64,000 bases of DNA from Fidelibacterota bacterium (GCA_016934035.1 JAFGTP010000011.1:60486-124485); one strand, 5' to 3'. Shown: positions 19,340 to 57,914, numbered from the stretch's first letter. Notes: a model not told the origin generated them from the sequence alone. Numbers and translations: made by a program.

Positions 19340-22300
19340 TTGAAGTGGTACGTTATGAAAAAGTGGGGAAATTTAATTTTTATTGGTGTTGCTATTCTGA
19401 ATTTCGCTTTCAGTAAAGAACAACCATTACATCTCATACCCCTGGATTTTAATCGGGCGATCCATTGTATTTATCAAGATTCAAACTATTATCTCTGGTT
19501 TGGTACAGATGATGGACTCTATCGGTATAACGGAAAAGATTATGTCGCCTACAAAATTGATCCTTATCAAAAGAATAGTATATCCGATGATAATATCACT
19601 GCCCTTTATGAAAATGGAAGTCGGGACCTGTTGATTGGGACAAAATTTGGCGGAATCAATAAATTTAATAGCAGTACGGAAAATTTTTTATCTTTTCAAA
19701 ATGACCTCATGTCCAGGGTTTCCATTCATGCAATATGTAATTTTCAGAATGAAATATTATTTGGGATTGATTCTGGATTATTCAGGCTGAAAAGTGAGAA
19801 TAGTGAATTGTCATACCAGGCTGTCCTTACCGGTTACACAATTACTGACATTTTATCTGTAGATGATCATTGTTTGATGGTTGCAACGGAAAATAACGGT
19901 TTTTTTCATTATGATAATTTTGAAAAGGAGGGTAGTGAAAAGGACCATTTTCTCAGTAATGTGGGAGTCAATTTTTTATTAAAGGTAAATAAAAATATTA
20001 TATTGATATCAACCAGGCAGGGGCTGTATTATTACAATTTGTCCGCAAAATCTCTTAAATCCATCGAGCACAAGGGAATAGTAAATTTATCCAGTGTTGA
20101 TAAAAATGCCATTACAATGGACCACCTCGGCAATATCTGGATAGGATTGGGGTATGAATTGCATCTGATTAGCACTTCTGACGACTTTAATTCCATTGAT
20201 ATTCAGTCCTTTGAACTGGATGTAGATAACCAGTTTTCAAAGGGAATTAATGCCTTGTATTTTGATCATAGCGGTGTCCTGTGGATCAACCTGAAAGGGA
20301 AAGGTTTATATAAATATTTCCCGTTACAAAAATTTTTGCATTTCAATATTGAAGAAGGATTGATGAGCAATATGATCTTTTCCGTCATTGAAAACAATTC
20401 CCATTCAATCCTGCTGGGCACCCATCATGGTTTATTTGTTTATGACCTGGAAGACCACCTTGTCGAAAGGATACCTGGAACGGAAGAACTGAATTTTCAG
20501 GTCATCACCGCTTTGTATAAAGATAGTTATCAAAACCTCTGGTGTGGCACGAATAATGGCCTCTACAAGTTTGGATCTTCCGGCGATCTTGTCCATTATA
20601 AACATTCCTCAAAGGAACTGAGCAGTATCAGTTCTGATTTTGTCTCCTCCATTGTTGGTGATCCGCTCAATGTTGGCGACCTTTGGATCGGTACTTCCGA
20701 CGGACTCAACCGCTATCGAAAAGAATATGACAATTTCATTCATTATTTTCATGACCAAAAGGATGAACATTCTATTGCCGGAAATAATATTTCCCATTTG
20801 TATTTTTCCCAAAAAAAGGACCTCTGGATCGGAACAGAGAATGAGGGACTGTCTAGATTAAATTGGGCAGAAATGAACAAATTTGACCCAAAATTTGTCA
20901 ATTATGGCGATGATATTACTCAAAAAGAAAGTATCAGCGATACCAAGATCACCTATATTTCCGAAAGCAATGACAGAATATGGATTGGAACTGAGAACGG
21001 CGGTTTGAATTCAATCGATACCCTAAACAACTTCAATCATTATCTTGAAACAAAGGGGCTTTTGGATAACCATATTTTGTCGATTTTATCCACTCAGGAT
21101 GATTTCCTCTGGATTGCAACACGGGACGGAATATCCAAATTCGATACTCGAAACCGTGTGTTTAAAAATTATTATTTCAAAGATGGTATAAAGAAGGGTG
21201 AATTTATTAATAAATCAGCCTGCATCACAAAAAATGGTAAAATTATTTTAGGTTCCAAAGCCGGCTTTACTTTTTTTCATCCGTCTCAGATTGTCAGCAA
21301 TATCAATCCGGCAGTTCCGCAGGTTGCCGGTGTTTATCTTTTTAACCAAAAAATAAAAAATGAAGATTTTAAAGGCCAGGGTGAAATTATCAAATTAAAA
21401 TATAACCAAAATGTTATCTCTTTTGAAATTTGTGCGCTTCACTATGTTTCTCCTCTTGAAAATATTATCGACTATTATCTCGAAGGTGTTGATGAGAGTT
21501 GGGGCAGATGTCGGAATTTTGAATACCTGACATATTCAAATTTAAAACCCGGTCAATATACTTTTCACATAAAAGTGGCTAATAATGACAATATCTGGAA
21601 TGAAAATGAAAAGAGCCTGAAAATTACGATAACTGCTCCGTTCTGGAGGACTTTTTGGTTTCAGTTTATTGTAATCTCTCTAATTGCAGGCCTGGCCTTT
21701 CTGTTCATCAAGCAACGTTTGAATGAGATTGAAAAGAAAAAATTTCATCTGGAAAAACAAATTGGGGATAAAATCAAAATCAATGAAGAACTTAATAAAG
21801 CCCTGGCAGAAGTAGAACAGTTGAAAATTAAACTTGAAAATGAAAACACTTATCTGAAAAAAGAAATTGAGGTCAGCGGCAATTCAAATTATAAAGAAAT
21901 CGTGACCAATAGTAAAAAGATGAATCATATTCTCGCCCAGGTGGATATCGCATCCGGTGCAGACCCGACTATTTTGATATTAGGCGAGTCAGGAACAGGA
22001 AAAGATCTCCTCGCTCATGCCATTCACAAAAGCAGTAATCGAAGCAAAGAGCCTTTTATCAAAGTTGATTGTGCCGCATTGCCCCCCAACCTTATTGAAT
22101 CAGAACTTTTCGGCCACGAAAAAGGTGCATTTACTTCAGCAAATATGCGTAAAATCGGGCGTTTTGAATTAGCCAACGGCGGGACAATTTTTCTGGATGA
22201 GATTGGAGAACTTCCGATCAAGGTGCAACAGAAATTATTGCGGGTCCTTCAAAGCGGAGAATTTGAACGACTCGGAAATTCTGTGACACTGAGAACCAAT

Positions 22301-22825
22301 ACACGCATCATTGCCGCAACAAACCGCAATCTTGAAGATGAAGTGAAAAAGGGACAATTTAGAGAGGACCTCTATTACAGGCTCAATGTCTTTCCGATCA
22401 ATATTCCGCCTTTGCGGGAAAGGATGGAAGATGTGCCCCTGCTCGTTCAGCATTTTATTGATAAATATGCTGGGAAATTCAATAAAACCATTACCAAAAT
22501 TCCGCAGAAAACCATCACTGCGCTGATGTCCTATTCCTGGCCCGGCAATATTCGTGAATTGGAAAATATCGTACAGCGGGCTATCATTATTAGCCGAGAC
22601 GACATACTGGAACTGGGTGATTGGTTTAAATCCAATCAACCCAATCGTGAAAACGATGATGAAAATATATTTATTTCTCTGGAAGAGATCCAAAAGCGCC
22701 ATATTGAAAGAATATTGGAATTTACCAATGGAAAAGTCAGCGGGGAAAACGGGGCTGCGGAAATTTTAAAAATTAACCCGAAAACTCTATTTAGCAGGAT
22801 GAAAAAATTAAATATAAATAACTAA
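19340..22825 (+). CDS. Membrane-anchored one-component sigma-54-dependent transcriptional activator with a periplasmic beta-propeller (two-component-regulator-propeller repeats)/Y_Y_Y sensor, then TM helix, coiled coil, AAA+ sigma-54 interaction domain and Fis-type HTH
   Basis: N-terminal signal/anchor. Repeated …LWFGTDDGL/…LLIGT/…IWIGT propeller repeats. Y_Y_Y-like segment (NLKPGQYTFHIKVANND). TM helix FWFQFIVISLIAGLAFLF. The AAA+ domain has Walker A ILILGESGTGKD, ELFGHEKGAFTSA (GAFTGA-type) and R-finger motifs. C-terminal HTH. No HisKA/HATPase or receiver segment is recognisable. Confidence 0.75.
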   Translation: MKWYVMKKWGNLIFIGVAILNFAFSKEQPLHLIPLDFNRAIHCIYQDSNYYLWFGTDDGLYRYNGKDYVAYKIDPYQKNSISDDNITALYENGSRDLLIGTKFGGINKFNSSTENFLSFQNDLMSRVSIHAICNFQNEILFGIDSGLFRLKSENSELSYQAVLTGYTITDILSVDDHCLMVATENNGFFHYDNFEKEGSEKDHFLSNVGVNFLLKVNKNIILISTRQGLYYYNLSAKSLKSIEHKGIVNLSSVDKNAITMDHLGNIWIGLGYELHLISTSDDFNSIDIQSFELDVDNQFSKGINALYFDHSGVLWINLKGKGLYKYFPLQKFLHFNIEEGLMSNMIFSVIENNSHSILLGTHHGLFVYDLEDHLVERIPGTEELNFQVITALYKDSYQNLWCGTNNGLYKFGSSGDLVHYKHSSKELSSISSDFVSSIVGDPLNVGDLWIGTSDGLNRYRKEYDNFIHYFHDQKDEHSIAGNNISHLYFSQKKDLWIGTENEGLSRLNWAEMNKFDPKFVNYGDDITQKESISDTKITYISESNDRIWIGTENGGLNSIDTLNNFNHYLETKGLLDNHILSILSTQDDFLWIATRDGISKFDTRNRVFKNYYFKDGIKKGEFINKSACITKNGKIILGSKAGFTFFHPSQIVSNINPAVPQVAGVYLFNQKIKNEDFKGQGEIIKLKYNQNVISFEICALHYVSPLENIIDYYLEGVDESWGRCRNFEYLTYSNLKPGQYTFHIKVANNDNIWNENEKSLKITITAPFWRTFWFQFIVISLIAGLAFLFIKQRLNEIEKKKFHLEKQIGDKIKINEELNKALAEVEQLKIKLENENTYLKKEIEVSGNSNYKEIVTNSKKMNHILAQVDIASGADPTILILGESGTGKDLLAHAIHKSSNRSKEPFIKVDCAALPPNLIESELFGHEKGAFTSANMRKIGRFELANGGTIFLDEIGELPIKVQQKLLRVLQSGEFERLGNSVTLRTNTRIIAATNRNLEDEVKKGQFREDLYYRLNVFPINIPPLRERMEDVPLLVQHFIDKYAGKFNKTITKIPQKTITALMSYSWPGNIRELENIVQRAIIISRDDILELGDWFKSNQPNRENDDENIFISLEEIQKRHIERILEFTNGKVSGENGAAEILKINPKTLFSRMKKLNINN

Positions 22826-22842: not shown

Positions 22843-23622
22843 TTGGGTATGGTATCTGCAAAAAAAATTATCCGCATAATGGATAAATACAAGCTGGAGA
22901 AATTGTTGCTGTCACCACAGCATCACAATATTGAAAATGGGTCCTATGACTGGTTACTGGGCCTTTTCCCTGATATGGATCCACTGAAGATGAAATTAAA
23001 AATTGATTCCATATTTAAAAGTCAGAAAGTCAATTCAAATTTTGATATGAAAAACCAGGAGTTCATCAATGCTTGTTGTCTTGAAAATAACAGGCTTAAA
23101 TTAATCTATACAATTGATATTGGTAATGATGATATTATAAGAAAATTACAATCAGAATTTGGAAAATCGCCATTTTCTGCCTTGAAAATAAATAATTTGT
23201 TTTCTTCTCTGGACCGGAATAATCAAAATCTTTTCAGGGTAATTAATTTCTGTCGCATCAATGAAATGCCGCTACTGCTCTATGCCTATAAAAAAGCTGA
23301 CTGTGAAATTATCCGCAATCTTGCGGCTGAAAACCAATCCAACACCTTTATGATAGCCAGCATGAGCGGATTGGAATTTTTTGAACTTTATCGGGATTTG
23401 CCCGTGAACCTATTCTGTGAAATAAATAATTTAAACCTTGTTTCTGATTACAGGTTACTAAAAGCCCTGAATATATTTGGTCCCGGTCATTTGGTCTTTA
23501 GTTTTGAGGCCATCAATGAAGATAATCTCAGACACTCTATCATCAGAATCTGCAATCTGGCTGTTCCGGAAACTGTAAAAAGAAGAATTCTGGCGTTGAA
23601 TATTGAGACCTTGTTGAATTAA
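22843..23622 (+). CDS. Hypothetical cytoplasmic protein
   Basis: ORF of 259 aa starting 17 nt after the activator gene. No recognisable motifs. Confidence 0.35.
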   Translation: MGMVSAKKIIRIMDKYKLEKLLLSPQHHNIENGSYDWLLGLFPDMDPLKMKLKIDSIFKSQKVNSNFDMKNQEFINACCLENNRLKLIYTIDIGNDDIIRKLQSEFGKSPFSALKINNLFSSLDRNNQNLFRVINFCRINEMPLLLYAYKKADCEIIRNLAAENQSNTFMIASMSGLEFFELYRDLPVNLFCEINNLNLVSDYRLLKALNIFGPGHLVFSFEAINEDNLRHSIIRICNLAVPETVKRRILALNIETLLN

Positions 23623-23625
23623 TAT

Positions 23626-23645
23626 TTCTGAAATATCAGAAATAT
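23626..23645. promoter_or_regulatory. Perfect inverted repeat ATTTCTGA-AATA-TCAGAAAT (candidate transcription-factor operator or upstream activating sequence)
   Basis: Read directly. The same unit (TTCTGAAAT) recurs at 24326-24344 and many times in 29146-29299. Confidence 0.35.
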
Positions 23646-23777
23646 CTATAATATCCTAAAACAGTAACAATAATTTCCTGTAAATACTTTAAGAAATTAG
23701 TAATTTTTTTTAATTCCTTAAAAAAAATACGTCGGAAAATGAATTTCTCTTAGGGTTTTGAGGTCAAACAGAAATTT

Positions 23778-23865
23778 TTGGCATTTGAATTGTTAATAAC
23801 TCTATCACGTACCATACTAATCCACAGAAAAAGGAAGATGCACCCCGCACTTCCTTTTTCTTTTT
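23778..23865 (+). promoter_or_regulatory. Module A: sigma-54-like -24/-12 element (TTGGCAT-N5-TTGTT), conserved box GTACCATACTAATCC, and terminator-like hairpin plus T-tract. Candidate small RNA gene or attenuator
   Basis: TTGGCAT lies at 23778-23784 and TTGTT at 23790-23794. The box is at 23809-23823. Hairpin GAAAAAGGAAG/CTTCCTTTTT spans 23827-23859 and is followed by CTTTTT. A near-identical module lies at 28845-28932. Confidence 0.3.
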
Positions 23866-24150
23866 ACTGTGAATAAAAATCCAAAAACTAACCTAAATAA
23901 AAAATATTTTGAAAAAAACTGGATTAAATCGGACTACCCTGAGGGCTTTGAGTGTTGATTGTTCGGCTTTTTGGATTGTAAATGAACATTTTCGTTGTGA
24001 TTAGTTGCGGATAGCGAAAAGGCCCTAATACCAGGAATATTCAATAGAAATGCATCAGTAGATAAAATAATTTCAGACTACGTAACCGAATTTTCTTCAT
24101 TTTGTATTACCATAACTTTTAAGCCCTCGATTATCTTTATACTCAAATCC

Positions 24151-24187
24151 GGGCTTTAACCCGATAACGGTTTATGGGTTAAAGCCC
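24151..24187. other. Perfect 12-bp stem hairpin GGGCTTTAACCC-(13 nt)-GGGTTAAAGCCC in the long non-coding leader
   Basis: Read directly. There is no adjacent T-run, so it is not a classic terminator. The upstream TTTTAAGCCC at 24118-24127 could pair alternatively with the 5' arm. Confidence 0.4.
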
Positions 24188-24468
24188 ATTAAAAATGAAA
24201 TTCCATGTTACGAGTTATTCCTCGTGGCAATTCATACACACTTTTTCCAATATGTAATCCGGGATAATACATAGTTAAATAAAGCACCTTGTTCCAATCT
24301 TTTTTTGAAAAGGCAAACGATTAAATCCGAAATTTCAGAAAAAACCTAAATATCAGATAGTTCACTGCCTTATTTAATTGTTTTAATTTGATTGAATATA
24401 TTAGTAATTAACTGATTAATAGTAAATTATCATTTTATTTTGGGACCTTGTTTTAGAATATTGATCTT

Positions 24469-24523
24469 TTGGTACTCAAATTGGATGAGTAGAAATCGGA
24501 TGATAAGGGATTAATGTAAGGGG
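24469..24523 (+). promoter_or_regulatory. Proximal promoter/leader of SusC-like gene A: TTGGTAC-N5-TTGGA followed by conserved leader box GGATTAATGTAAGGGG
   Basis: The same architecture lies upstream of the second SusC-like gene (29382-29426). A strong RBS AAAGGAGGAAGGT sits before the ATG at 24584. Confidence 0.3.
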
Positions 24524-24583
24524 ACCCACCAATCACACCGTTTTACATTAATCACAAGTAAATAAAACATAAAGGAGGAAGGT

Positions 24584-27484
24584 ATGGCGAAATACTTGAT
24601 TTCGTTATTTCTTGTCCTGGTTCTATTCTGTCCATTAATTGCCCAGGATAGAATTTCAGGAACAGTGATCGATGATGTCACAGATGAACCGCTTGTGGCA
24701 GCAAATGTATTGATAAAGGGAACATCTGTGGGCACAGCCACGGATGAAGAAGGTCGGTTCTTTTTAAATTACAGCAACAATGAGGGGTTTACGTTGCAGG
24801 TATTCTATATGGGATACAAAATGAAAGAAGTTGTCTTTGAGCCGGGATCTGGTCTGGCTAACATTTTAGTTAGAATGCAGGAAGATGTGTTTAAAGGACA
24901 GGAAGTTGTGGTCACAGGCATTGCTTCTCAAATATCACGGGAGATAGCACCAGTCTCTGTAGGTTCGGTTGATGCAACAAAACTGACGGATTTAAACGCC
25001 TACTCGGATATTGCCCAATTGCTCAACGGGAAAATTTCCGGTACTAAAATCACATCTTCCAGTGGAAATGTGGGCGGGGGATATCGCTTTGATATTCGTT
25101 CCGGTGGCGGTCTCAACGGAGATGGTCAGCCCGTTATCTATGTAGACGGCATTCGTATTGACAATTCAGAGATTGAAACCCGTTACAGCAAAGGGGGACA
25201 GGAAATCAGCATGATGGCTTCTCTTAATCCTTCAGAAATTGCAAATATTGAAATTCTGAAAGGTCCGGCTGCTGCAGCGACCTATGGAACGGACGGTTCT
25301 AATGGAGTTGTCCTCATTACAACCAAAAAGGGACAACTGGTCCAGGGCGGAAAAGGATATTCTATCAACTATAATTATAAATTTGGTACCAATTCCCAAT
25401 CCTATCAATACACCAAAGATGATGTTGTTTCCTACAAGGCCGCCAATTCTGTTTTCAAAGATGGTGATTTTGTGGGTCATGACCTCAGTATTTCCGGTGG
25501 TAATAAAGCAACAAAATACTTTTTTACCATGGGTATCCAGGATGAAGAAGGGATTATGGTTAACAATTTTCATAATCGTAAAAATATGCGTCTGAATGTT
25601 GACGCTGTGGCCAGTGAACAATTAAACCTGTCCGCAACCATTGCCATGAACCAGTCAGAACTGGCCCGTCCGGAAAATGATGATAATATTTATGGATGGG
25701 GTGGAAATACACTTTTAAGGCCCACACCCTGGGGTTGGCTGGACAGCATTGAAATTGCGGCGGCTGAAGAAAATATTGACATTAAAAAAATGTCCGGTAG
25801 TTTCAAGGCAACTTACAGGCCCTTCAAAAATTTTTCAATCAATGGATCCATTGGAGCGGAACATTCAAATATGAACCATTATTCCTATTACCCGCCATGG
25901 GGAGATTATCTCTATACCAATGGTTCTAAACAACTGACAGACCGATTCAATACACAGTTTACCTACACTTGGTATGCCGGATATAAATACAATATTCTGG
26001 AAGGCTTTACCGGAAACACCAAAGTTGGCGGCCAGTTATTCGATCAGGAACTGAGAAGAAATTATTTGGCCATTGATTCATTGTCATCAGATAAACTGAA
26101 AGATATTGGTTCTGCAAACGGTGAAGATTTTCTGGACGATTATGGTGAAAACTATGCGACCTTTCGAACTGCAGGGTTATTTTTGGATAATGCATTTAAT
26201 TTTCAGGATAAATTGTTTATAGGGGCCAGTATCCGGCAGGATTTTGCCAGTTCTTTATCGCCCAAAGCACCGAATATCATTTACCCCCAGGCTAATGTTG
26301 CAATCAGACTGGACCGGTTTGGATTGACACCCGGCCTGATTGATATGGCAAAAATCAGATTAGCCTACGGTGAAACAGGGCAGTTGCCGGGATCAACCCA
26401 GTCAACTCCATTGATATGGGCAGCTGAACAGTCGGGATATGGTGGTGGGCTAACGGTATCGGAAATTGGAAACAACAAACTGGAACCGGAAAGAATCAAG
26501 GAATTGGAAATCGGACTGGATTTGGGGCTTTTCAACCGCTACAAAATCGAAGCTTCTTATGCCAAAATGAACGCTGAAAATTCAATCGTGGGTAGAAATC
26601 TGGCGCCTTCAACCGGACTGGTGGTCACAGCTTTTCCTGATAATATCGGAAAAATTGAAGGACACTCCTTTGAGCTTGGCCTGGATGCAGTACTGGTCAA
26701 TGAAAAAAATGTTCGTCTTGAGATCAACCAGAGAAATTCATGGCAGAAAGATGAGATTACGATAATGCCGGAACCATCCTATACCAATGACATCCAGGTT
26801 CTGATGGAAGGTAAATCCAGATGGACGTTCTTTGATGAGAAAGTAGATTCCATCATGTATGATGAAAATGGAAAGTTTCTGGACTACCGTATATCCACAG
26901 ATAAGAAAGACCTGGGAGATGCCATACCCGATTATTTTGGTTCTTTGTCGATGAACCTTACCTTGTTCCGACATGTGAATATCTATGGATTATTGGATTG
27001 GCAGACTGGTGTCAAAGTCTATAATTTTACCAAGGTCTATCAAACTTTTTTTGGCAACAATGTGGCCTATAATGAAGCCACTGCCCTGGTGGATTCTCTT
27101 AATGCCATTGATGGGTATGATTATCATTCCGGAAAATACAAAAAAGCGGTTAAAGATTATGTGAAATACGATGCGGTTTTTTATGGTTCAAGGGCCGCTT
27201 TTATTGAAAATGGCGATTACCTGAAAATCAGAGAATTGAGCATCAGTTATGACGCCTCCCATTTACTGAAAAAATATCTGCCCAATGCAGGGATTGAAAG
27301 ACTGGCTTTTTCTTTTACAGCAAATAATCTCATTACATGGACGAAATATTCCGGTGCTGATCCCGAGGTCAATTCCACCGGCTCAACTGTAGATGGCGGT
27401 GAGACCTATGTTACCAGAAATGAAGATTTTTTGACAATGCAGCATCCTAAGAGGATTGCATTTTCAATACAATTGGGTTTATAG
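24584..27484 (+). CDS. SusC/RagA-like TonB-dependent outer-membrane receptor
   Basis: Signal peptide. Carboxypeptidase-regulatory-like N-domain (ISGTVIDDVTDEPLVAANVLIKGTSVGTATDEEGRF). Plug region and a long beta-barrel ending in an aromatic-rich C-terminus. A SusD-like gene follows. Confidence 0.85.
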   Translation: MAKYLISLFLVLVLFCPLIAQDRISGTVIDDVTDEPLVAANVLIKGTSVGTATDEEGRFFLNYSNNEGFTLQVFYMGYKMKEVVFEPGSGLANILVRMQEDVFKGQEVVVTGIASQISREIAPVSVGSVDATKLTDLNAYSDIAQLLNGKISGTKITSSSGNVGGGYRFDIRSGGGLNGDGQPVIYVDGIRIDNSEIETRYSKGGQEISMMASLNPSEIANIEILKGPAAAATYGTDGSNGVVLITTKKGQLVQGGKGYSINYNYKFGTNSQSYQYTKDDVVSYKAANSVFKDGDFVGHDLSISGGNKATKYFFTMGIQDEEGIMVNNFHNRKNMRLNVDAVASEQLNLSATIAMNQSELARPENDDNIYGWGGNTLLRPTPWGWLDSIEIAAAEENIDIKKMSGSFKATYRPFKNFSINGSIGAEHSNMNHYSYYPPWGDYLYTNGSKQLTDRFNTQFTYTWYAGYKYNILEGFTGNTKVGGQLFDQELRRNYLAIDSLSSDKLKDIGSANGEDFLDDYGENYATFRTAGLFLDNAFNFQDKLFIGASIRQDFASSLSPKAPNIIYPQANVAIRLDRFGLTPGLIDMAKIRLAYGETGQLPGSTQSTPLIWAAEQSGYGGGLTVSEIGNNKLEPERIKELEIGLDLGLFNRYKIEASYAKMNAENSIVGRNLAPSTGLVVTAFPDNIGKIEGHSFELGLDAVLVNEKNVRLEINQRNSWQKDEITIMPEPSYTNDIQVLMEGKSRWTFFDEKVDSIMYDENGKFLDYRISTDKKDLGDAIPDYFGSLSMNLTLFRHVNIYGLLDWQTGVKVYNFTKVYQTFFGNNVAYNEATALVDSLNAIDGYDYHSGKYKKAVKDYVKYDAVFYGSRAAFIENGDYLKIRELSISYDASHLLKKYLPNAGIERLAFSFTANNLITWTKYSGADPEVNSTGSTVDGGETYVTRNEDFLTMQHPKRIAFSIQLGL

Positions 27485-27493
27485 GAGGTTTAT

Positions 27494-28741
27494 ATGAAAA
27501 ATATTAAAATAATTTTATTGCCGGTTTTACTCTTCTCAATAGTCATGGTGTCCTGTGAAGATTGGGTCCAGGATTTACCTCCCCGCGAGGATATTATTGA
27601 AGATGATGTTCTGGTAGATGAAGCCGATATCGATTTACTGGTTCTGGGTATCAAGACCAATTTTTCTTCAACTATTGAGCGGTCCTCGCTCTATTCGGAA
27701 ATATTGGGAGATGCTGTAATTAATGGTCGCTATGTTTGTCAGGATGCCACTTATGATGTCTGGCGCGAACTTGAAGAAGGTGATATTCAATTAAACAATG
27801 CGGCGGTTGACGGGCTTTCCACAAATATTGGAGAAATGTGGCACTGTGCCACCAATCTCGTCGATCGTATCACCAATCGAATGGGAGAAATCAGTGAAGA
27901 AAAGAAAAATTATGGGCTTTTCAACGGCCATCTGTTTGAAGGCATTGCTTATGAGATTTATGCCAATTATTATGGTCTGAATGAAGAAGAAGGCGGTGGA
28001 TGTATCAACTCCGGGCCTTTTACCAATTCAGGGCAGCTCTTTGATATGGCCCTGAATAAATATGAAGAGGCCCTCAATTTTACCAGTGATCCCTGGGAAA
28101 TCCGGGTGGTGAATTCACTGATGGCCAGGTGTTATTTATATAAAGGTGATTATTCCGGTTCCAGGATATGTGGAGCACTGGGTTTGACAGAAGGTGACCA
28201 GCCCTTTGAGGCGCTTTATGTTCAGTCCTCGGATAATTATTGGTGGCAGCAAGCCAGCATTGGACTTCGTGTCCAGGTCATTGTGGATAACAGGTTTGCT
28301 CAGTATATCGATGAGGATCCCAACGAAGCCAACCGCATTCCGCTTTATGAATTGCCTGACGAATTAAATGTGTCAGAAGATACTGCGGCGGTTTATTGGA
28401 CCCAGGGTAAGTATATTGAGGCAGATGCGCCTATCGCTTTTATCACCTGGCAGGAGACCTATCTGATCCTGGCTGAACTGGCTGCAATAAGAGGACAATC
28501 GGGCAATGCCCTTGATGCTGTCAATGCAGTTCGTGGCAGTCATGGAATTGATCCGGTGTCCGAAGTCAATCGTGATTTGATCATCACAGAGCGGGATAAA
28601 GAATTATTTACCACAGGTGCAAGGCTGATCGATCAGCGTCGTTTTGATCTATGGCATTTGCCCTCCGGTACATGGAAGTATCTCCCAATCACGGAAAGTG
28701 AACGAAATGCCAATGATAATTTGCCCAATGTCGGTGAATAA
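27494..28741 (+). CDS. SusD/RagB-like lipoprotein
   Basis: Lipobox VMVSC. Sits immediately after the SusC-like gene. C-terminus …RRFDLWHLPSGTWKYLPITESERNANDNLPNVGE matches the SusD-family C-terminal LPIP-x-SE-x-NPNL-type tail. Confidence 0.7.
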   Translation: MKNIKIILLPVLLFSIVMVSCEDWVQDLPPREDIIEDDVLVDEADIDLLVLGIKTNFSSTIERSSLYSEILGDAVINGRYVCQDATYDVWRELEEGDIQLNNAAVDGLSTNIGEMWHCATNLVDRITNRMGEISEEKKNYGLFNGHLFEGIAYEIYANYYGLNEEEGGGCINSGPFTNSGQLFDMALNKYEEALNFTSDPWEIRVVNSLMARCYLYKGDYSGSRICGALGLTEGDQPFEALYVQSSDNYWWQQASIGLRVQVIVDNRFAQYIDEDPNEANRIPLYELPDELNVSEDTAAVYWTQGKYIEADAPIAFITWQETYLILAELAAIRGQSGNALDAVNAVRGSHGIDPVSEVNRDLIITERDKELFTTGARLIDQRRFDLWHLPSGTWKYLPITESERNANDNLPNVGE

Positions 28742-28758
28742 CTAATGAAATTAACCAT

Positions 28759-28800
28759 AAAGTCCTCTTTGAATTGCAAAGGGGACTTTTACTTTTCTTA
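28759..28800 (+). terminator. Rho-independent terminator after the SusD-like gene
   Basis: AAAGTCCTCTTTG-aatt-CAAAGGGGACTTT (one mismatch) followed by TTACTTTTCTT. Confidence 0.5.
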
Positions 28801-28844: not shown

Positions 28845-28932
28845 TTGGCATTCATATTGTTATGCTAAAAGATGTACCATACTAATCCTAGGAAAAGGAA
28901 AGTCTCTCTCAAATAAACTTTCCTTTTTCTTT
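28845..28932 (+). promoter_or_regulatory. Module B: second copy of the sigma-54-like element (TTGGCAT-N5-TTGTT), GTACCATACTAATCC box, and hairpin plus T-tract
   Basis: TTGGCAT lies at 28845-28851 and TTGTT at 28857-28861. The box is at 28874-28888. Hairpin AAAAGGAAAGT/ACTTTCCTTTT is followed by the same CTTTTTCTTTTT tail as module A. The stems differ by compensatory changes. Confidence 0.3.
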
Positions 28933-29145
28933 TTCCAGATAAAATTCCCGATATCAAATCAGTGCTATCCCCCGACAGAGTAAAAATGGCGACAGGAAAG
29001 GCTTTTTTTCAAACTGTTAAATCTGTCTTCAGAGTCTTATAAAAAAATGGTGTATGGAATGATGTTCGAATTTTTATTTAAAAATCTGATATTTACATTA
29101 ATTATTTAATGTATTTGTTGAATTTTTTTTAATAAAAATAGTTTA

Positions 29146-29299
29146 ATATCAGAAAAGTATGATTTAGTTGAGGGTTTGATCGGTTTTTTTGAAGTATTTA
29201 AGAAATTCTGAAAAAAAATTCGGAAATTTCGGAAATTTCGGAAAGTTCTGAAATATCCTATATTTAATCCTTTTTGCATTATTCTGAAATATCAGAAAA
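29146..29299. promoter_or_regulatory. Array of 9-bp TTC(T/G)GAAA(T/G) units: five direct repeats (29206-29254), an inverted repeat ATTCTGAAAT-ATCAGAAAA (29281-29299) and isolated half-sites (29146-29157). Candidate activator binding region
   Basis: Read directly: TTCTGAAAA, TTCGGAAAT x2, TTCGGAAAG, TTCTGAAAT, and a palindrome built from the same unit. It lies about 85 to 240 bp upstream of the proximal sigma-54-like element at 29382. Confidence 0.4.
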
Positions 29300-29381: not shown

Positions 29382-29426
29382 TTGGTACATCTGTTGAGAA
29401 ATACCTATCAGGATTAGTGTAAGGGG
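29382..29426 (+). promoter_or_regulatory. Proximal promoter/leader of SusC-like gene B: TTGGTAC-N5-TTGAG followed by GGATTAGTGTAAGGGG box
   Basis: Same architecture as 24469-24523. RBS AAAAGGAGGAAAGT sits before the ATG at 29493. Confidence 0.3.
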
Positions 29427-29492: not shown

Positions 29493-32400
29493 ATGACAAG
29501 AAATGTCATTTTATGGTTATTGACCATCCTGTTACCATTTGTTCTATTCGCTGGAACAACTGGTAAAATTTCAGGAATAGTAACCGACAAGGAAACCGGT
29601 GAACCCTTACCCGGTGTTAATATAGTGGTTACCGGTGGCGGTCTGAATACCGGAGCGGCAACTAACATCACCGGTTATTATTCCATTATTAATGTTCCTG
29701 TAGGTGATTATGAAATGAAAGTATCCTACATGGGAAAAAAGACCATTGTAATTAAAAACCTACATGTATCCCTGGATTTGACGACAGAAATCAATCTTGA
29801 GATGGAAAACAGTACATTGGATATGGAAGAAGTTCTGGTTACTGCCGAACGCAAAATTATCAGAAAAGATGAAACCAATACCAATGTTATCAAAACTGCT
29901 GAAGATATTGAAAATCTTCCCGTAAGAGGTATGCAGGAAATTGCAGCCGCCACAGCAGGTGTTGTGAAAACAGCGAATTCCAACAACATGAATGTTCGTG
30001 GCGGACGTGCAGCAGAAACTGCAGTGTATATAGACGGCGTACTGGTTAATGATCCCTATAACAGTGCCGTCAGACTGTATTTGCCAAACGAAGCAATTGA
30101 AGAAATGAGTGTCCAGACCGGTGGTTTCAATGCCGAATACGGTGATGCCATGTCGGGTATTGTTGCTTTGACCACCAATGTTGGGACAAAAGAATACAAG
30201 GCCTCTATATCTTTTGATACGGACCAGTTTCTGAGTGCTGAGGAAAAATTTCTGGGGACCTATTCCTATGGCCATAATGAGTATGTTGCCACCTTGAGTG
30301 GTCCTATTATTCCTGGAAAAAATCATACATTCTTTTTCAGTGGAACCCGTCAATACCAGGCTGACTGGACGCCTTCTTATGGCTGGTCAGAAAATCCCTA
30401 TCGTCTGGAGGAAATGGATTATCATCAGACTTTTATGTATGACAATGAATTTGACAGCATTCGTATTGCTTATAATGATGAAATGGAAAAAATGGATACA
30501 ACCCTGATAACCTATACCGAAAGAGATACACTTGATCTCGGTAACCATCAATACAAGTTTAATGCAAGAATACCTGGCAATTTCAACAGTGTCTGGTCAT
30601 GGAACGGAAAATTTAAATTACAATTGACCGAAGGGATTTCACTGAAAACCGGTTTTGCCAGAACTGACAGGGAATTTGCTGCAGATCCTTATTATGATGA
30701 TGCGATGCACCGGCAATATTTCTTCAATCAGGACCATGGTCCTGTTCAGTCCAATCAGACAACATCTCTCAATACCACGCTGACTCATACTGTTTCCAAT
30801 AATACTTTTTATGATTTAAGATTCAAATATTTTGATACAGAGCGGAAATGGTACGATAAGGAATTTGGTGATGATCTGGAAAAATATGGTAGTGTTGAAG
30901 ACCAGCCCTTTCCGGATCAAAATATATTCTACGTCGGTAGTGAAGAACTCCGGTCGCTTTATGAAGAGCGGTATGACCGTGGAACTTCAACATTTAAAGG
31001 TACTAGGTTCAACGGTTCTCTGGAACCGGACTTTTTTGCGCCCGGTGTTCCTTATGACGATTATTTTAAAAACAGAACAACCTATTGGGGAATCGATTTT
31101 GATCTGACCCACCAATTGGGAAAACATCATACCTTTAAAACCGGGTTTGAATATAAATATCACACCATGCGTGAATTTCGTATGGTAAGTCCCTACAATT
31201 ACGTCGGAGATTATGATACTGATATTGAAAGATATCAGGGTGCGGACCTGCGATTCTACGGTTATGATGTTGAGGGTAAAGAAGTGGATGACGGGCCAAA
31301 TTTTCTGGATGATGTCGAAAGAGATGAATCCGGACAGCCCACATCTGGTTATGACAAACAGGAACCCTATCATCCGATTATTATGAGTGGTTATTTGCAG
31401 GATAAAATAGAGTATGAAAATATTATCATCAATATGGGACTGAGATATGACCGGATTGATCCCAATGCCTGGATGTTCAAACAAATTGATAAACAGGTTG
31501 ATGCAGATGGCAATTACATCAATGGCACCGGTATGTTTGGTGGCAATGAACAATTTGATGCTGTAGATACAAAACCCTCAGAAGTATATGACTATCTCAG
31601 TCCTCGTCTGGGCGTGTCTTTTCCGATTACCGAAAGTACTGTTTTCCATACACAATATGGTATTTTCTATCAGGCACCTCAGCTCATGGACCTTTATCTG
31701 AGTCCTTTTTATCTGGATACCTATGTATCAGGTGGTGGTTATTTTACTGTGATTGACAATCCAAATTTACGGCCACCCAAAACCACTTCCTATGAATTGG
31801 GTTTCAAACAAATGCTTGGCAATCGCGCTTCGCTGCAGCTGACGACCTTTTTCAAGGAAACTGAAGACCTGGTACTGATATTCCCACATTTGACCGATGC
31901 TACGGAAATCGCTTTTACCGATAATGGTGATTTTGGCACCATCAAAGGTTTTGATGTGATTTTTACTATGAGAAGATTCAATAATCTTTCACTGAATATG
32001 AATTATGAGTTCCAGGTAGCCAGAGGGACCGGATCCAGTACCAATTCCAATTTTGATATCGCCTGGCAGGATGGTTCCCGGGACGGAAACTTTCCAAAGT
32101 TTGCAATGCCCCTGGATTTTGAGCAGCGACATCGCGGCAGTATCATAATGGATTACCGATACGGGCAGGATGATGCACCAATCGGTTTTCTGAATAATGC
32201 CGGTATCAATATGATGTTTACTTTTAATTCAGGTAATCCCTATACTTTGGCGGTTGTTGCCAACACCAATCCTTTTGGCGGCCGGAATGACAATGATGGT
32301 ATTTCAGAAAAACCCTTTTCAGCAGTCGGTGCGGAGCGGACTCCCTGGATGTATCAGACAGACCTGAAAGTAGATAAAAGAATGACTTTCGGAAAAATAA

Positions 32401-32633
32401 AACTGACGGCCTACTGTACAATATTGAATGTTTTTAATAAAGAAAATGTTAAAAATGTTTACATCACCACTGGATCGCCCAATGATACGGGTTACCTGGG
32501 TACCAATCCCGGTAAAGTATACTGGAATAGTTTAACTGAAGATCAGCAAAAACAATTCAAGATGAGAGAATGGGATTATAGCCATTATGCAGCACCAAGA
32601 CAGATTCGTCTTGGATTGCGGCTGGAACTATAA
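29493..32633 (+). CDS. SusC-like TonB-dependent outer-membrane receptor (no SusD partner)
   Basis: Signal peptide. Carboxypeptidase-regulatory-like N-domain (ISGIVTDKETGEPLPGVNIVV…GYYSI). Plug and a long barrel. Start taken at the ATG at 29493, which has a strong RBS; the ORF-track start at 29427 lacks one. Confidence 0.85.
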   Translation: MTRNVILWLLTILLPFVLFAGTTGKISGIVTDKETGEPLPGVNIVVTGGGLNTGAATNITGYYSIINVPVGDYEMKVSYMGKKTIVIKNLHVSLDLTTEINLEMENSTLDMEEVLVTAERKIIRKDETNTNVIKTAEDIENLPVRGMQEIAAATAGVVKTANSNNMNVRGGRAAETAVYIDGVLVNDPYNSAVRLYLPNEAIEEMSVQTGGFNAEYGDAMSGIVALTTNVGTKEYKASISFDTDQFLSAEEKFLGTYSYGHNEYVATLSGPIIPGKNHTFFFSGTRQYQADWTPSYGWSENPYRLEEMDYHQTFMYDNEFDSIRIAYNDEMEKMDTTLITYTERDTLDLGNHQYKFNARIPGNFNSVWSWNGKFKLQLTEGISLKTGFARTDREFAADPYYDDAMHRQYFFNQDHGPVQSNQTTSLNTTLTHTVSNNTFYDLRFKYFDTERKWYDKEFGDDLEKYGSVEDQPFPDQNIFYVGSEELRSLYEERYDRGTSTFKGTRFNGSLEPDFFAPGVPYDDYFKNRTTYWGIDFDLTHQLGKHHTFKTGFEYKYHTMREFRMVSPYNYVGDYDTDIERYQGADLRFYGYDVEGKEVDDGPNFLDDVERDESGQPTSGYDKQEPYHPIIMSGYLQDKIEYENIIINMGLRYDRIDPNAWMFKQIDKQVDADGNYINGTGMFGGNEQFDAVDTKPSEVYDYLSPRLGVSFPITESTVFHTQYGIFYQAPQLMDLYLSPFYLDTYVSGGGYFTVIDNPNLRPPKTTSYELGFKQMLGNRASLQLTTFFKETEDLVLIFPHLTDATEIAFTDNGDFGTIKGFDVIFTMRRFNNLSLNMNYEFQVARGTGSSTNSNFDIAWQDGSRDGNFPKFAMPLDFEQRHRGSIIMDYRYGQDDAPIGFLNNAGINMMFTFNSGNPYTLAVVANTNPFGGRNDNDGISEKPFSAVGAERTPWMYQTDLKVDKRMTFGKIKLTAYCTILNVFNKENVKNVYITTGSPNDTGYLGTNPGKVYWNSLTEDQQKQFKMREWDYSHYAAPRQIRLGLRLEL

Positions 32634-32666
32634 ATTGATTTCAATTTTTGAATTGGAGGAAAATAT

Positions 32667-35900: not shown

Positions 35901-35941
35901 CGGTCAGGTTATCTGATAACGTAATTATGGAGGAAAAAGTT

Positions 35942-36976: not shown

Positions 36977-36999
36977 TGGAGCCCCTTACATGACCTGGG

Positions 37000-37032
37000 A
37001 AAGGCTGCCGCAAGGCAGCCTTTTTCTATTTT
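37000..37032. terminator. Bidirectional terminator between convergent genes
   Basis: AAAGGCTGCC-gcaa-GGCAGCCTTT followed by TTTCTATTTT. It overlaps the stop of the minus-strand gene at 37026. Confidence 0.55.
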
Positions 37033-43728: not shown

Positions 43729-43930
43729 GATTTCCCTCCTTTGAATAATCCCTCTAAACGAGATTAATATATTTGAAGGAATCTGAAATAAAAAGTAATT
43801 TTTCATGCCTCATAAACAAAAACAGCTGCAAAAAAGCTGTTTATAATTTGTTTAAACAAAACAAACTCCAAACTAACATTACATTGCTTAATATTTTGGC
43901 ATGAGGATTTATTAACTAATTGGAGGTTTT

Positions 43931-46729: not shown

Positions 46730-46815
46730 TCGCTGAAAACTTTATAAAAAAGAGACAGGGAAGTTTGCCTTTTGGGTGAATTTCCCTCTCTTTATATAAA
46801 ACCAATGAGGAAAAA

Positions 46816-47904: not shown

Positions 47905-47941
47905 TTGATATTATTTTGTACTTCCCTCCTTCCTTACTCAC

Positions 47942-47977
47942 AAAAGGATGCATTTTTATTGCATCCTTTTTTTATTT
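47942..47977 (+). terminator. Rho-independent terminator after phytase gene
   Basis: AAAAGGATGCA-tttttat-TGCATCCTTTT followed by TTTTATTT. Confidence 0.55.
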
Positions 47978-48017
47978 CCTGGAAAATTATAAATTTTCTT
48001 TAACAGAAGGAGTAATT

Positions 48018-48755: not shown

Positions 48756-48760
48756 AAATA

Positions 48761-48788
48761 AAAGCCTTCTTTGAAGGTTTTTATTTTT
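48761..48788 (+). terminator. Weak terminator-like hairpin
   Basis: AAAGCCTTC-tttg-GAAGGTTTT (one mismatch) followed by TATTTTT. Confidence 0.35.
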
Positions 48789-48883
48789 CAGGTCCTTTTC
48801 TCAACCAGTAAATCTGTTTTTATTCTGGTGTTAATTTTTTAACTTTACAGGCTGATGTAAATTAAAAATTGGAGCCTGAGCTG

Positions 48884-54426: not shown

Positions 54427-57914
<3,488 letters not shown>

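Follow-up and report, generated by a model that had tools for sequence, protein, structure and literature searches.

A gene in the 64,000-nucleotide stretch of Fidelibacterota bacterium DNA analysed here (the window) probably encodes a one-component, inner-membrane-anchored bacterial enhancer-binding protein, gated by a periplasmic ligand without phosphorelay and driving a neighbouring regulon; a probability of about two in three is given to this reading. The protein appears to couple periplasmic sensing directly to the switching of sigma-54 promoters with no kinase relay. The coherent cis-regulatory layout predicted downstream of its gene (palindromes, -24/-12 promoters, a small RNA and transporters) is new here.

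The open reading frame (19340-22825, + strand) opens with a TTG at 19340, and the probable start is the ATG at 19355. The 1156-aa product is identical over its full length to a deposited protein from a metagenome-assembled genome (P0001, 'sigma 54-interacting transcriptional regulator [Candidatus Marinimicrobia bacterium]'). The gene and the parts of its product are the following:

19355-22825, + strand: gene of the putative membrane-anchored sigma-54 activator, 1156 aa (ORF call and 100% identical 1156-aa database protein)
19355-19414, + strand: N-terminal signal peptide or anchor MKKWGNLIFIGVAILNFAFS (sequence; AF2 helix 2-18)
19427-21631, + strand: periplasmic sensor of two beta-propellers (Reg_prop repeats) and a Y_Y_Y Ig-like domain, aa 25-759 (Pfam, PDB, Foldseek)
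21650-21724, + strand: single transmembrane (TM) helix, aa 766-790 (hydropathy; AF2 helix 767-836)
21725-21898, + strand: helical linker, aa 791-848 (AF2 model and linker motif)
21899-22648, + strand: sigma-54 interaction AAA+ domain and lid, aa 849-1098 (Pfam, motifs, PDB, Foldseek)
22676-22810, + strand: Fis-type helix-turn-helix (HTH), aa 1108-1152 (Pfam HTH_8, AF2, homologues)

The Pfam models identify the Reg_prop repeats, Y_Y_Y at 697-759, Sigma54_activat at 849-1015 (E 1e-69) and AAA_lid_14 at 1021-1098. The HTH_8 match at 1108-1152 (E 2.7e-4) scores 21.1 bits, just under the curated cutoff of 22; three helices occupy this region in the AF2 model and the homologues carry the same domain call. 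Hydropathy analysis gives one strong hydrophobic segment (766-790) in addition to the N-terminal signal-like segment, and the positively charged stretch KQRLNEIEKKK lies directly after the TM helix. The AF2 model (pLDDT 85.4) consists of beta strands from 36 to 759, a continuous helix from 767 to 836 and then the AAA+ and HTH domains. The sensor matches the PDB sequences 4A2L, 3V9F and 3OTT, with E 2e-63 to sensors of Bacteroides hybrid two-component systems, and Foldseek superimposes it on the BT4663 periplasmic domain (E 1e-53; target-normalised TM-score 0.8) and the AAA+ domain on the NtrC1 ATPase (51% identity, TM-score 0.9). The first-pass annotation had proposed this domain order, with one TM helix followed by a coiled coil and neither histidine kinase nor receiver. 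Pfam, hydropathy and AF2 bear it out: a topology with a single TM helix is predicted, and the coiled coil is seen as a helical linker. HisKA, HATPase_c and Response_reg have no Pfam match in the protein even at E<=1, nor do HTH_18/AraC and GerE (PF00196) match. The TM helix and the AAA+ domain are separated by about 58 residues predicted as a single helix, and a linker of this size (~58-60 residues) is too short to hide a HisKA, HATPase or REC domain.

Since the window belongs to a metagenome-assembled genome, a sensor gene joined to a separate activator gene by assembly or by a frameshift has to be considered. No support for such an artefact was found. The identical product is deposited, full-length collinear homologues (26-70% identity) come from independent samples and from Marinimicrobia/Fidelibacterota, Ignavibacteriaceae and Planctomycetota, and the TM helix runs unbroken into the linker helix in the AF2 model, which makes a fusion of this kind extremely improbable.

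The AAA+ domain might also not act as a sigma-54 activator at all, being inactive or a sigma-54-independent regulator or repressor, as described for TyrR, and for FleQ at some promoters. The sigma-54 contact loop, GAFTSA at 924-929, differs from GAFTGA by one substitution, and the protein scores below every NCBIfam equivalog cutoff. On the other hand, the remainder of the loop is conserved and GAFTGA is the consensus of 15 homologues; the catalytic motifs are all intact (Walker A GESGTGK at 877, Walker B IFLDE at 945 and, for the arginine-finger region, REDLYYRL at 1003), and four lineages have -24/-12 motifs beside the gene. A role outside sigma-54 activation is therefore very unlikely.

The sensor-TM-AAA+-HTH architecture is represented by about 25-30 clusters at 50% identity in the sequence databases. 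These also hold other membrane-anchored sigma-54 activators, with 7TMR-DISM or minimal sensors (P0154, P0200, P0155, P0171), which share the linker-AAA+-HTH module (~55% identity) and differ in the extracytoplasmic sensor or have none. The literature yielded no study of the propeller-sensor design, nor of the 7TMR-DISM-AAA+-HTH or minimal TM-anchored activators. The first description of an unusual transmembrane activator holds: judged from the database proteins, the architecture is unusual, though not unique. Similarly, the sensor was rightly likened to those of Bacteroidetes in its fold, which matches BT4663, but it is not specific to that group; the propeller/Y_Y_Y module occurs in many phyla, also joined to kinase, GGDEF and PP2C outputs.

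Two known systems with the same type of sensor come close to the activator. The hybrid two-component systems (HTCS) of Bacteroides (BT4663, a heparin/heparan sulphate sensor, PDB 4A2L/4A2M; BT3049; BT4673) resemble the activator in their periplasmic tandem propeller and Y_Y_Y domains. Both are single DNA-binding polypeptides that span the inner membrane and are encoded near genes of TonB-dependent (SusC-like) transporters. However, HTCS contain HisKA, HATPase_c, a receiver and an AraC-type HTH and act by phosphorelay at ordinary promoters, whereas the activator lacks all four domains and its output is an ATP-driven sigma-54 AAA+ module with a Fis-type HTH. BguR of Formosa agariphila is a one-component regulator that spans the membrane and controls an adjacent transporter/PUL locus (bioRxiv 10.64898/2026.01.10.698779, July 2026, where SusR is also cited). 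It shares with the activator the signal peptide, the two propellers with Y_Y_Y, the single TM helix and the helical linker, and likewise lacks phosphorelay domains. BguR belongs to Bacteroidota, is described as ATP-independent and has a GerE/LuxR-type HTH at its end, whereas the activator belongs to Marinimicrobia/Fidelibacterota and contains the sigma-54 AAA+ domain. Because this ATPase is inserted, the activator would, unlike BguR, need ATP hydrolysis, oligomerisation and sigma-54 promoters. The BguR preprint makes no mention of sigma-54 or AAA+ outputs (bioRxiv 10.64898/2026.01.10.698779).

From the linker onwards the activator resembles soluble proteins. NtrC1 and NtrC4 of Aquifex aeolicus, FhlA, NifA and NorR share with it the AAA+ domain, the lid, the Fis-type HTH and an alignable helical linker, but they are soluble and receive a cytoplasmic input (receiver, GAF), whereas the activator has a periplasmic sensor connected through the TM helix. 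The linker keeps NtrC1 and DctD in an inactive dimeric state, and NorR, NifA and FhlA have an N-terminal domain that represses the ATPase. The NCBIfam models of FhlA, NifA and NorR align to the activator from aa 796-807, within the linker, and the NtrC1 structure 1NY5 aligns from aa 816. The linker motif L..AL.EVE.LK..L..EN.YL..EI is common to PAS/GAF-type and other TM-anchored activators.

This likeness bears on a different mode of activation, regulated proteolysis, in which the ligand triggers a cut near the TM helix and the soluble linker-AAA+-HTH fragment assembles on enhancers like a cytoplasmic activator. A free fragment requires neither ring assembly by tethered subunits nor DNA brought to the membrane, and the module from the linker onwards, ~55% identical to cytoplasmic PAS/GAF-linked activators, should work when free. 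However, the linker motif is the one that transmits signals in PAS/GAF dimers, which fits conformational control, and the orthologous loci show no protease gene conserved beside the activator gene. HTCS and BguR, which span the membrane with the same sensor, are also thought to act without release (bioRxiv 10.64898/2026.01.10.698779). Release by proteolysis is accordingly considered unlikely, and control of a membrane-anchored activator is the preferred reading.

The region downstream of the activator gene contains the following genes, promoter motifs and palindromes:

22849-23622, + strand: 257-aa ORF, 24 nt after the activator stop codon, with no Pfam or NCBIfam match
23626-23641, no strand: perfect palindrome TTCTGAAATATCAGAA, candidate enhancer (UAS), 153 bp upstream of the small-RNA-A promoter (palindrome scan)
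23779-23793, + strand: -24/-12-type promoter TGGCATTTGAATTGT of small RNA A (motif match, conservation)
24325-24340, no strand: palindrome-like site ATCCGAAATTTCAGAA, 145 bp upstream of the SusC-like promoter (palindrome scan)
24470-24484, + strand: -24/-12-type promoter TGGTACTCAAATTGG of the SusC/SusD-like operon (motif match, conservation)
24584-28741, + strand: operon of a SusC/RagA-family TonB-linked transporter (24584-27484) and a SusD-like lipoprotein (27494-28741)
28846-28860, + strand: -24/-12-type promoter TGGCATTCATATTGT of small RNA B (motif match, conservation)
29219-29297, no strand: palindromic cluster, 164 to 101 bp upstream of the TonB-receptor promoter, of three overlapping TTCGGAAATTTCGGAA-type sites plus one perfect TTCTGAAATATCAGAA
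29383-29397, + strand: -24/-12-type promoter TGGTACATCTGTTGA of the TonB receptor operon (motif match, conservation)
29493-36976, + strand: operon of a TonB-dependent receptor (ATG 29493-32633), a 1077-aa protein (32667-35900) and a PorV/PorQ-family outer-membrane protein (35927-36976)

The two operons end in terminators at 28759-28789 (SusC/SusD-like) and 36997-37026 (TonB receptor). The sigma-54-like promoters noted earlier beside the SusC-like loci are found as -24/-12-type motifs ahead of the SusC-like and TonB-receptor genes, clustered and conserved: four of the five matches to TGG[CT]A[CT]-N5-TTG in the window lie on the + strand, in both intergenic regions downstream of the activator gene (within 1.7 kb; P ~1e-7). 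The -24 and -12 blocks are invariant in seven small-RNA copies and four transporter leaders (five loci), whereas the spacer and the -10 region vary. The -12 element of the Marinimicrobia promoters is TTGA, TTGT or TTGG, in place of the canonical TTGC. Neither the 64-kb window nor the fetched loci encode a protein with an RpoN box; that this genome has sigma-54 is an assumption.

The missing canonical C and the lack of a visible rpoN, together with the similarity of TTGGCA to TTGACA, suit a reading of the TTGGCA/TTGGTA blocks as -35 elements of ordinary sigma-70 promoters, with another regulator on the palindromes and the true targets of the activator elsewhere. However, conservation is confined to exactly two blocks at sigma-54 spacing (TGGYAY-N5-TTG), the region of a would-be -10 hexamer varies freely between orthologues, and a consensus scan for sigma-70 gives no + strand promoter at these sites. 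Moreover, the layout recurs by distant homologues (L088, L089, L093), where tandem palindromes at the gene end are followed by a -24/-12 motif and, 30-55 nt after it, by the next gene; the L093 motif is the perfect TGGCACCCCTCTTGCA (TGGCAC-N5-TTGCA), and the palindromes differ from those of the window. Sigma-70 promoters are hence a quite unlikely explanation, and the motifs are read as putative sigma-54 promoters.

The palindrome TTCTGA-N4-TCAGAA is enriched, with 17 matches where 2 are expected. Its distance from the promoter is fixed at 100/101 or 153/154 bp in the window and in three further loci (L001, L004, L092); the 250 bp upstream of small RNA B contain none. The palindromes are candidate enhancers of the activator, a link that rests on their conserved adjacency only.

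The window also encodes a split system with the same types of input and output:

50200-54426: propeller/Y_Y_Y-TM-GAF-PAS-HisKA-HATPase kinase
54420-55829: REC-AAA+ (NtrC-type) regulator

The kinase has the same sensor type as the activator (21% identity over a stretch of ~900 aa that takes in the TM helix and coil), and the regulator has the same output type, with a 44% identical AAA+ domain. Unlike the one-protein membrane activator, this system consists of two proteins joined by phosphotransfer and its activator is soluble. The NtrC-type regulator is a second activator in the window, and its presence weighs against assigning the palindromes to the membrane protein.

Two copies of a predicted small RNA of about 65 nt, each with its own -24/-12-type promoter, lie downstream of the activator gene, and the transporter leaders carry partly complementary motifs:

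23800-23865, + strand: small RNA copy A, with invariant 5' core GTACCATACTAATCC, terminator hairpin and CCTTTTTCTTTTT (CM score 73 bits)
28865-28934, + strand: small RNA copy B (CM score 70 bits)
24508-24523, + strand: conserved leader motif GGATTAATGTAAGGGG of the SusC-like operon; it is in part complementary to the small-RNA core and forms the 5' arm of a hairpin predicted in the leader
29411-29426, + strand: conserved leader motif GGATTAGTGTAAGGGG near the predicted mRNA 5' end of the TonB receptor operon, able to form 10-11 bp with the small-RNA core

The conserved core is single-stranded and the terminators show compensatory changes. The small RNA has no Rfam match: a search of the window at the gathering threshold and one of 23600-24600 at E<=1 were both negative. 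Two small RNA-leader pairs form duplexes of -21.5 and -23.5 kcal/mol, beaten by 0/500 shuffles; the other five pairs tested are marginal (shuffle fraction 0.03-0.07). Small RNAs transcribed by sigma-54 and dependent on an activator are known from LuxO-Qrr in Vibrio and GlrR-GlmY in Enterobacteria. The locus resembles these in pairing an enhancer-binding protein with an adjacent, conserved, short and terminator-ended small RNA that has a putative sigma-54 promoter and an invariant single-stranded core. It differs in that LuxO and GlrR are soluble response regulators, and the small RNA here has no sequence or Rfam relationship to theirs and its targets are guessed.

The orthologous loci indicate which neighbours stay with the activator gene. 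The small RNA unit directly follows the stop codon of the orthologue in L004 (57% identity) and in L005-7. The TonB receptor/1077-aa/PorV-like operon also follows in L004, as in the window, whereas the locus of the 69%-identical orthologue contains the small RNA and no transporter operon. The 257-aa ORF is kept (62% identity) after the 69% orthologue and is absent after the 57% and 54% orthologues. Judged by gene order, the conserved target beside the activator gene is the small RNA together with the TonB receptor/1077-aa/PorV-like operon, not the SusC/SusD pair, and the conserved partner across orthologous loci is the small RNA, not SusC. The activator gene had been placed directly upstream of the SusC-like loci; it is upstream, but not directly, as the 257-aa ORF (22849-23622) and a small RNA unit intervene.

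A possible course of signalling starts in the periplasm, where a ligand, probably an oligomer that the regulated TonB-dependent transporters import, would bind the sensor and alter the packing of the TM and linker helices within a dimer. The linker would be the same conserved input helix that PAS and GAF domains use in cytoplasmic activators, and its repacking would free the AAA+ domains to assemble an active ring. The HTH dimers would hold the activator on the TTCTGA-N4-TCAGAA enhancers, about 100 and 154 bp upstream of the -24/-12 promoters; as the activator is anchored, the target DNA would therefore be activated at the membrane. No protein was found for which ring assembly by a membrane-tethered AAA+ activator has been shown. 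The regulon beside the gene would comprise the two copies of the ~65-nt small RNA, the SusC/SusD-like pair and the TonB receptor/1077-aa/PorV-like operon. In the weakest step, base pairing may occur between the small RNA's invariant 5' core and the transporter mRNAs at their conserved 5' end, pointing to a loop, feed-forward or feedback, that acts on transporter expression. Taken as a whole, the circuit is proposed tentatively, with the chances somewhat against it: a membrane-tethered AAA+ ring gated by a periplasmic ligand would pull enhancer DNA to the membrane, and its first conserved output would be an undescribed small RNA family pairing with the co-activated TonB-transporter mRNAs, in a coupled protein-RNA circuit for nutrient uptake in uncultured marine Marinimicrobia.

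Sigma-54 activators are regarded as soluble proteins under the control of phosphorylation, small ligands or partner proteins. Activators that receive their signal directly through the membrane would form a family with a new route of input, and raise the mechanistic question of how an AAA+ ring assembles and reaches the promoter when every subunit is anchored in the membrane. The propeller/Y_Y_Y sensor, which serves glycan sensing in gut Bacteroides, is combined in nature with at least three direct outputs, namely AraC via phosphorelay, GerE and, as seen here, a sigma-54 ATPase. Marinimicrobia are an abundant dark-ocean phylum with hardly any cultured members, and for them the locus offers a testable regulon, made up of defined enhancers and promoters, the transporter operons and a new small RNA that could be traced in metatranscriptomes.

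The open reading frame (ORF) at 19340-22825 (+), with ATG 19355 as the probable start, encodes a protein of 1156 aa. The ORF is real, and its product is identical from end to end to a deposited Candidatus Marinimicrobia MAG protein, which bears no other name than 'sigma 54-interacting transcriptional regulator'. The domains recognized by Pfam in this activator are the following.

Domains of the activator (Pfam)
N-terminal sensor part: Reg_prop repeats
aa 697-759: Y_Y_Y domain
aa 849-1015: Sigma54_activat (E 1e-69)
aa 1021-1098: AAA+ lid
aa 1108-1152: Fis-type HTH (21.1 bits, slightly below the cutoff of 22)

The relay domains HisKA, HATPase_c and receiver gave no Pfam match in the activator even at E<=1. 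The NCBIfam models FhlA, NifA, NorR and NtrC, as well as other models, align to the C-terminal 330-360 residues only and all score under the equivalog cutoffs. The ATPase and sigma-54 contact motifs are intact (Walker A at 877, GAFTSA at 924, Walker B at 945 and the REDLYYRL region at 1003). Hydropathy indicates an N-terminal signal-like segment and a single strong transmembrane (TM) segment at aa 766-790, followed by a Lys/Arg-rich stretch. The AlphaFold2 model, built from a 57-sequence alignment (mean pLDDT 85.4), contains beta structure at aa 36-759, an unbroken helix at 767-836 and, beyond it, the AAA+ fold and a C-terminal unit of three helices. The 58 residues from the membrane to the AAA+ domain are thus one helix, into which a kinase or a receiver cannot fit. 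The first-pass annotation had described one TM helix leading into a helical linker, AAA+ and HTH, with neither kinase nor receiver, and both points hold.

The best Foldseek match in the PDB for the sensor is the periplasmic domain of BT4663, the Bacteroides heparin sensor (E 1e-53, approximately 775 aligned columns, TM-score of 0.8 normalised to the target), and the next ones are BT3049 and BT4673. The ATPase part matches NtrC1 with 51% identity and a TM-score of 0.9. Comparison with PDB chains by sequence alone is consistent with these matches. A frameshifted fusion of two genes is ruled out by collinear full-length homologues with 26-70% identity, obtained from independent samples labelled Fidelibacterota, Ignavibacteriaceae and Planctomycetota. 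The original interpretation of the activator is supported.

The window also encodes a split counterpart of the fused protein.

Split pair
50200-54426, + strand: 1408-aa propeller/Y_Y_Y-TM-GAF-PAS-HisKA-HATPase_c kinase
54420-55829, + strand: 469-aa REC-Sigma54_activat regulator, overlapping the kinase gene by 7 nt

The pair at 50200-55829 is the classical two-component version of the same logic, with a kinase and a separate regulator, and the AAA+ domains of the 469-aa regulator and of the fused protein share 44% identity. Large propeller/Y_Y_Y sensors without an AAA+ domain were also observed in loci from unrelated phyla (Acidobacteriota, Hydrogenedentota and Alteromonadales; L029 4679-8089, L010 4795-9213 and L025 5665-8934), each with a gene for a soluble sigma-54 activator a few kb away at most. 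Such a split arrangement may be the origin of the fused form.

The fused architecture recurs in several FCB-group and neighbouring phyla. HMMER was run exhaustively against 1.84 billion representatives of clusters at 50% identity; of the best 150, roughly 25-30 cover the propellers to the HTH in one alignment. Database matches also include versions of about 1500 aa in which inserted PAS and GAF domains separate the membrane segment from the AAA+ domain. Other membrane-anchored activators found in the search have the linker-AAA+-HTH module in common, with about 55% identity. In P0154 and P0200, and by hydropathy also in P0159, P0174 and P0228, a 7TMR-DISM seven-helix domain is fused to AAA+ and HTH_8. 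P0155 and P0171 are minimal anchored activators that span the membrane once or twice and have hardly any periplasmic part. Alignment of the approximately 95 residues preceding the AAA+ domain shows that the fused, 7TMR-DISM and minimal proteins have in common the motif L..AL.EVE.LK..L..EN.YL..EI.L..NF.EI, which is also present in cytoplasmic PAS/GAF-linked activators. Consequently, the membrane-anchored proteins employ the input helix of cytoplasmic sensor domains.

Among the matches listed from a genome-collection scan, the fused sensor is absent from all 80 loci, all of which encode generic cytoplasmic activators; the scan patterns came from the AAA+ domain of the full-length-homologue alignment, and the result says nothing on taxonomic spread. 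These loci, 1.25 Mb in all, served as a negative control for both the palindrome and the small-RNA core described below. A crude hydropathy count of TM segments in the 80 activators was dropped as a frequency estimate, owing to false positives within receiver domains.

The genes located 5' of the activator are housekeeping genes, syntenic in all orthologous loci (acyl-CoA synthetase-like, AIR-synthase-like, glycerol-3-phosphate dehydrogenase and a 904-aa secreted protein). On the 3' side, the activator is followed by a 257-aa ORF. Across an intergenic region of 960 bp come the genes for a SusC/RagA-family transporter and a SusD-like protein and, across another of 750 bp, those for a TonB-dependent receptor, a 1077-aa protein and an outer-membrane protein of the PorV/PorQ family. 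Consensus terminators are placed 3' of the SusD gene and 3' of the PorV-like gene.

Uncharacterised proteins 3' of the activator
22849-23622, + strand: 257-aa ORF, 24 nt past the activator gene; counterpart at 13500-14273 in L001, the locus of the 69% orthologue
32667-35900, + strand: 1077-aa protein, between the TonB-dependent receptor and the PorV/PorQ-family protein; also at 18032-21265 in L004, the locus of the 57% orthologue

Neither Pfam nor NCBIfam has a match for the product of the 257-aa ORF, which may be an accessory factor. Its identity with the counterpart in the closest orthologous locus is 62%, and the loci of the 57% and 54% orthologues lack the ORF. The 1077-aa protein belongs to no Pfam family and shows only a faint similarity to the C-terminus of PorU, the T9SS sortase. 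Together with the TonB receptor and the PorV/PorQ-family protein, it could form an uncharacterised outer-membrane uptake or secretion trio. This operon is also kept in L004, and L001 carries unrelated outer-membrane genes in its place. The SusC/SusD pair is present in the window only, among the orthologous loci compared. The TonB receptor ORF opens mechanically at GTG 29427. The conserved ribosome-binding site AAAGGAGGAA favours a start at ATG 29493, and GTG 29427 would put the promoter and leader motif described below inside the ORF.

Two further features were observed in the window. The stretch 23880-24320 of the 960-bp region, from small RNA A to the SusC-like promoter, has no ORF of at least 100 aa and is hairpin-prone, for example at 24125-24200 ('aagccctcg...cgggcttta...gggttaaagccc'). 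A separate nutrient-acquisition cluster at 41800-50155 comprises a GH97 glycosidase (-), a TonB-dependent receptor, a beta-propeller phytase, an esterase/peptidase S9-like protein and an Exo_endo_phos-family protein with a FlgD_ig tail; its only -24/-12 motif lies inside an ORF (45095, - strand).

The first-pass annotation had placed sigma-54-like promoters at the SusC-like loci, and motifs of the -24/-12 type are indeed found there.

Candidate promoters of the -24/-12 type
23779 and 28846, + strand: class 1 (small RNA), TTGGCAT-N4-ATTG(T)
24470 and 29383, + strand: class 2 (transporter), TTGGTAC-N5-TTG(G/A), some 100 nt upstream of the start codons of the SusC-like and TonB-receptor genes

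The pattern TGG[CT]A[CT]-N5-TTG has five matches on both strands of the window, four of which are on the forward strand inside two intergenic regions, against 0.04 expected (P about 1e-7). A scan with the classical TGGCAC-N5-TTGC, allowing 2 mismatches, gave no overall enrichment in the window (35 vs 45 expected), so the four sites stand out by position and conservation alone. The class 2 promoter is conserved before the orthologous TonB receptors in L004 and in a further locus, L092, together with a leader motif, GGATTA(G/A)TG(G/T)AAGGGG (GGAUUAGU), near the predicted transcript start. The -12 block of the Marinimicrobia promoters lacks the canonical C. A search for the rpoN gene by its RpoN box was negative in the 64-kb window and in all fetched loci. 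At L005, a locus of the 54% orthologue, a -24/-12-like motif (TGGTATGAAATTTGT, 6526, +) lies 53 nt before a methyl-accepting chemotaxis-like gene just 5' of the orthologue.

Enrichment in the window was observed for the palindrome TTCTGAAATATCAGAA: allowing up to 3 mismatches, it has 17 matches where 2.0 are expected, a count reached in 0 of 100 shuffles. Clusters are located at 23626, 24325 and 29219-29297. The distances from the palindrome start to the start of the -24 block are 153, 145, 164/155/146 and 101 bp in the window, 154 bp in L001, 100 bp in L004, 166 bp in L006 and 154 and 100 bp in L092. The two favoured positions are approximately 54 bp apart, roughly five helical turns, as expected of the enhancers of a DNA-looping activator. 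Small RNA B has no palindrome nearby upstream. A good match (TTCCGAAATATCAGAT, 3749-3764, -) inside the acyltransferase-family ORF 2796-4487, far from -24/-12 motifs, is probably due to chance.

The small RNA unit with its promoter is the single downstream element that is always present beside the activator gene in the orthologous loci, mostly with the palindrome. The unit is placed 3' of the 257-aa ORF in the window and in L001-3, and 40-300 nt from the activator stop codon in L004 and L005-7. From this conserved adjacency, the activator would drive the adjacent promoters via the candidate palindromic enhancers. The enhancers are likewise assigned to the fused protein, rather than to the second activator of the window, by adjacency only. 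The loci of more distant homologues show the same cis layout with different palindrome sequences. In L088, two tandem palindromes TTGCCAATATTTTGGCAA lie directly past the stop codon and TGGCAATCCATTTGT precedes a thioredoxin-like gene by about 50 nt. L089 has TCCCAATATATTGGGA-type palindromes and the promoter TGGTCCGCTTCTTGA. In L093, the inverted repeat GAGAAATATCACG...CGTGATATTTCTC spans the stop codon and a perfect TGGCACCCCTCTTGCA is found 55 nt before a STAS-domain gene. Such lineage-specific palindromes, always beside the gene and 5' of a -24/-12 motif, fit co-evolving HTH-enhancer pairs and support the family as genuine sigma-54 activators.

The class 1 promoter is followed after 14-16 nt by the invariant GTACCATACTAATCC, a hairpin and CCTTTTTCTTTTT, which make up the small RNA unit of roughly 65 nt. 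Seven distinct copies were found (two in the window, two in L004 and one each in L001, L006 and L092). The -24 and -12 blocks, the 15-nt core (ACUAAUCC) and the tail are invariant, the spacer is variable and the hairpin stems differ by compensatory changes. No Rfam family matches the small RNA. A covariance model found no copies beyond the known ones in the window or in the loci of other homologues, and a metagenome scan with the small-RNA pattern returned two contigs only, one already known. The terminators (-15 to -23 kcal/mol, RNAfold) escaped the consensus scan, since their A/G-rich stems contain few G-C pairs.

All seven folds leave the core single-stranded, and it occupies the extreme 5' end of the predicted transcript. 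With the leader motif of the TonB receptor mRNAs, it is predicted to form 10-11 contiguous base pairs. The duplex reaches -21.5 kcal/mol between copy B and the TonB-receptor leader of the window and -23.5 kcal/mol in L092, with 0 of 500 shuffles as good; the remaining five pairs are marginal (shuffle fractions 0.03-0.07). This pairing should be read as a lead rather than a result. A leader hairpin is also predicted, with the leader motif as its 5' arm and a 3' arm similar to the small-RNA core. This hairpin is not claimed, as the four sequences available give too thin covariation support.

Sensors of the BT4663 type are dimers whose inter-subunit geometry shifts when the ligand binds. In NtrC1 and DctD, a helical linker keeps the AAA+ domains as an inactive dimer, and in NorR, NifA and FhlA the ATPase is repressed by the N-terminal sensor. 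These precedents lead to a three-step proposal. Binding of a periplasmic ligand would reposition the two TM and linker helices. Subsequently, the repositioned helices would free the AAA+ domains for ring assembly on enhancer-bound dimers. The activator would act while still membrane-bound, as assumed for the Bacteroides hybrid two-component systems (HTCS) and for BguR, a one-component regulator of Formosa agariphila. The main alternative, release of the activator by regulated proteolysis, is considered improbable. For the membrane-bound activator, the regulated genes suggest that the ligand is a product of outer-membrane uptake.

The HTCS have the same kind of sensor and the same membrane logic in a single polypeptide. 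On the other hand, three of the features that define HTCS (kinase core, receiver and AraC HTH) are absent from the activator, and it is therefore not an HTCS. Its C-terminal half is a member of the enhancer-binding protein family. The location of a sigma-54-type small RNA beside an activator gene is reminiscent of LuxO-Qrr and GlrR-GlmY, whose sigma-54-transcribed small RNAs have no sequence relationship to the one described here. BguR has the same signal peptide-propellers-Y_Y_Y-TM-linker plan but a GerE output, and is described as ATP-independent; sigma-54 and AAA+ outputs are unmentioned in the preprint (bioRxiv 10.64898/2026.01.10.698779).

Within an incomplete coverage of the literature, no description of a transmembrane enhancer-binding protein carrying a periplasmic sensor, of this type or another, was found, and searches on Y_Y_Y with Sigma54_activat, 7TMR-DISM with sigma-54 and Marinimicrobia with sigma-54/rpoN returned no description of the fused architecture. 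The sigma-54 activator with a membrane-spanning, HTCS-type input is a real finding, and no study of this architecture was found in that literature. The conserved layout of enhancer, promoter, small RNA and transporter makes this activator system directly testable.
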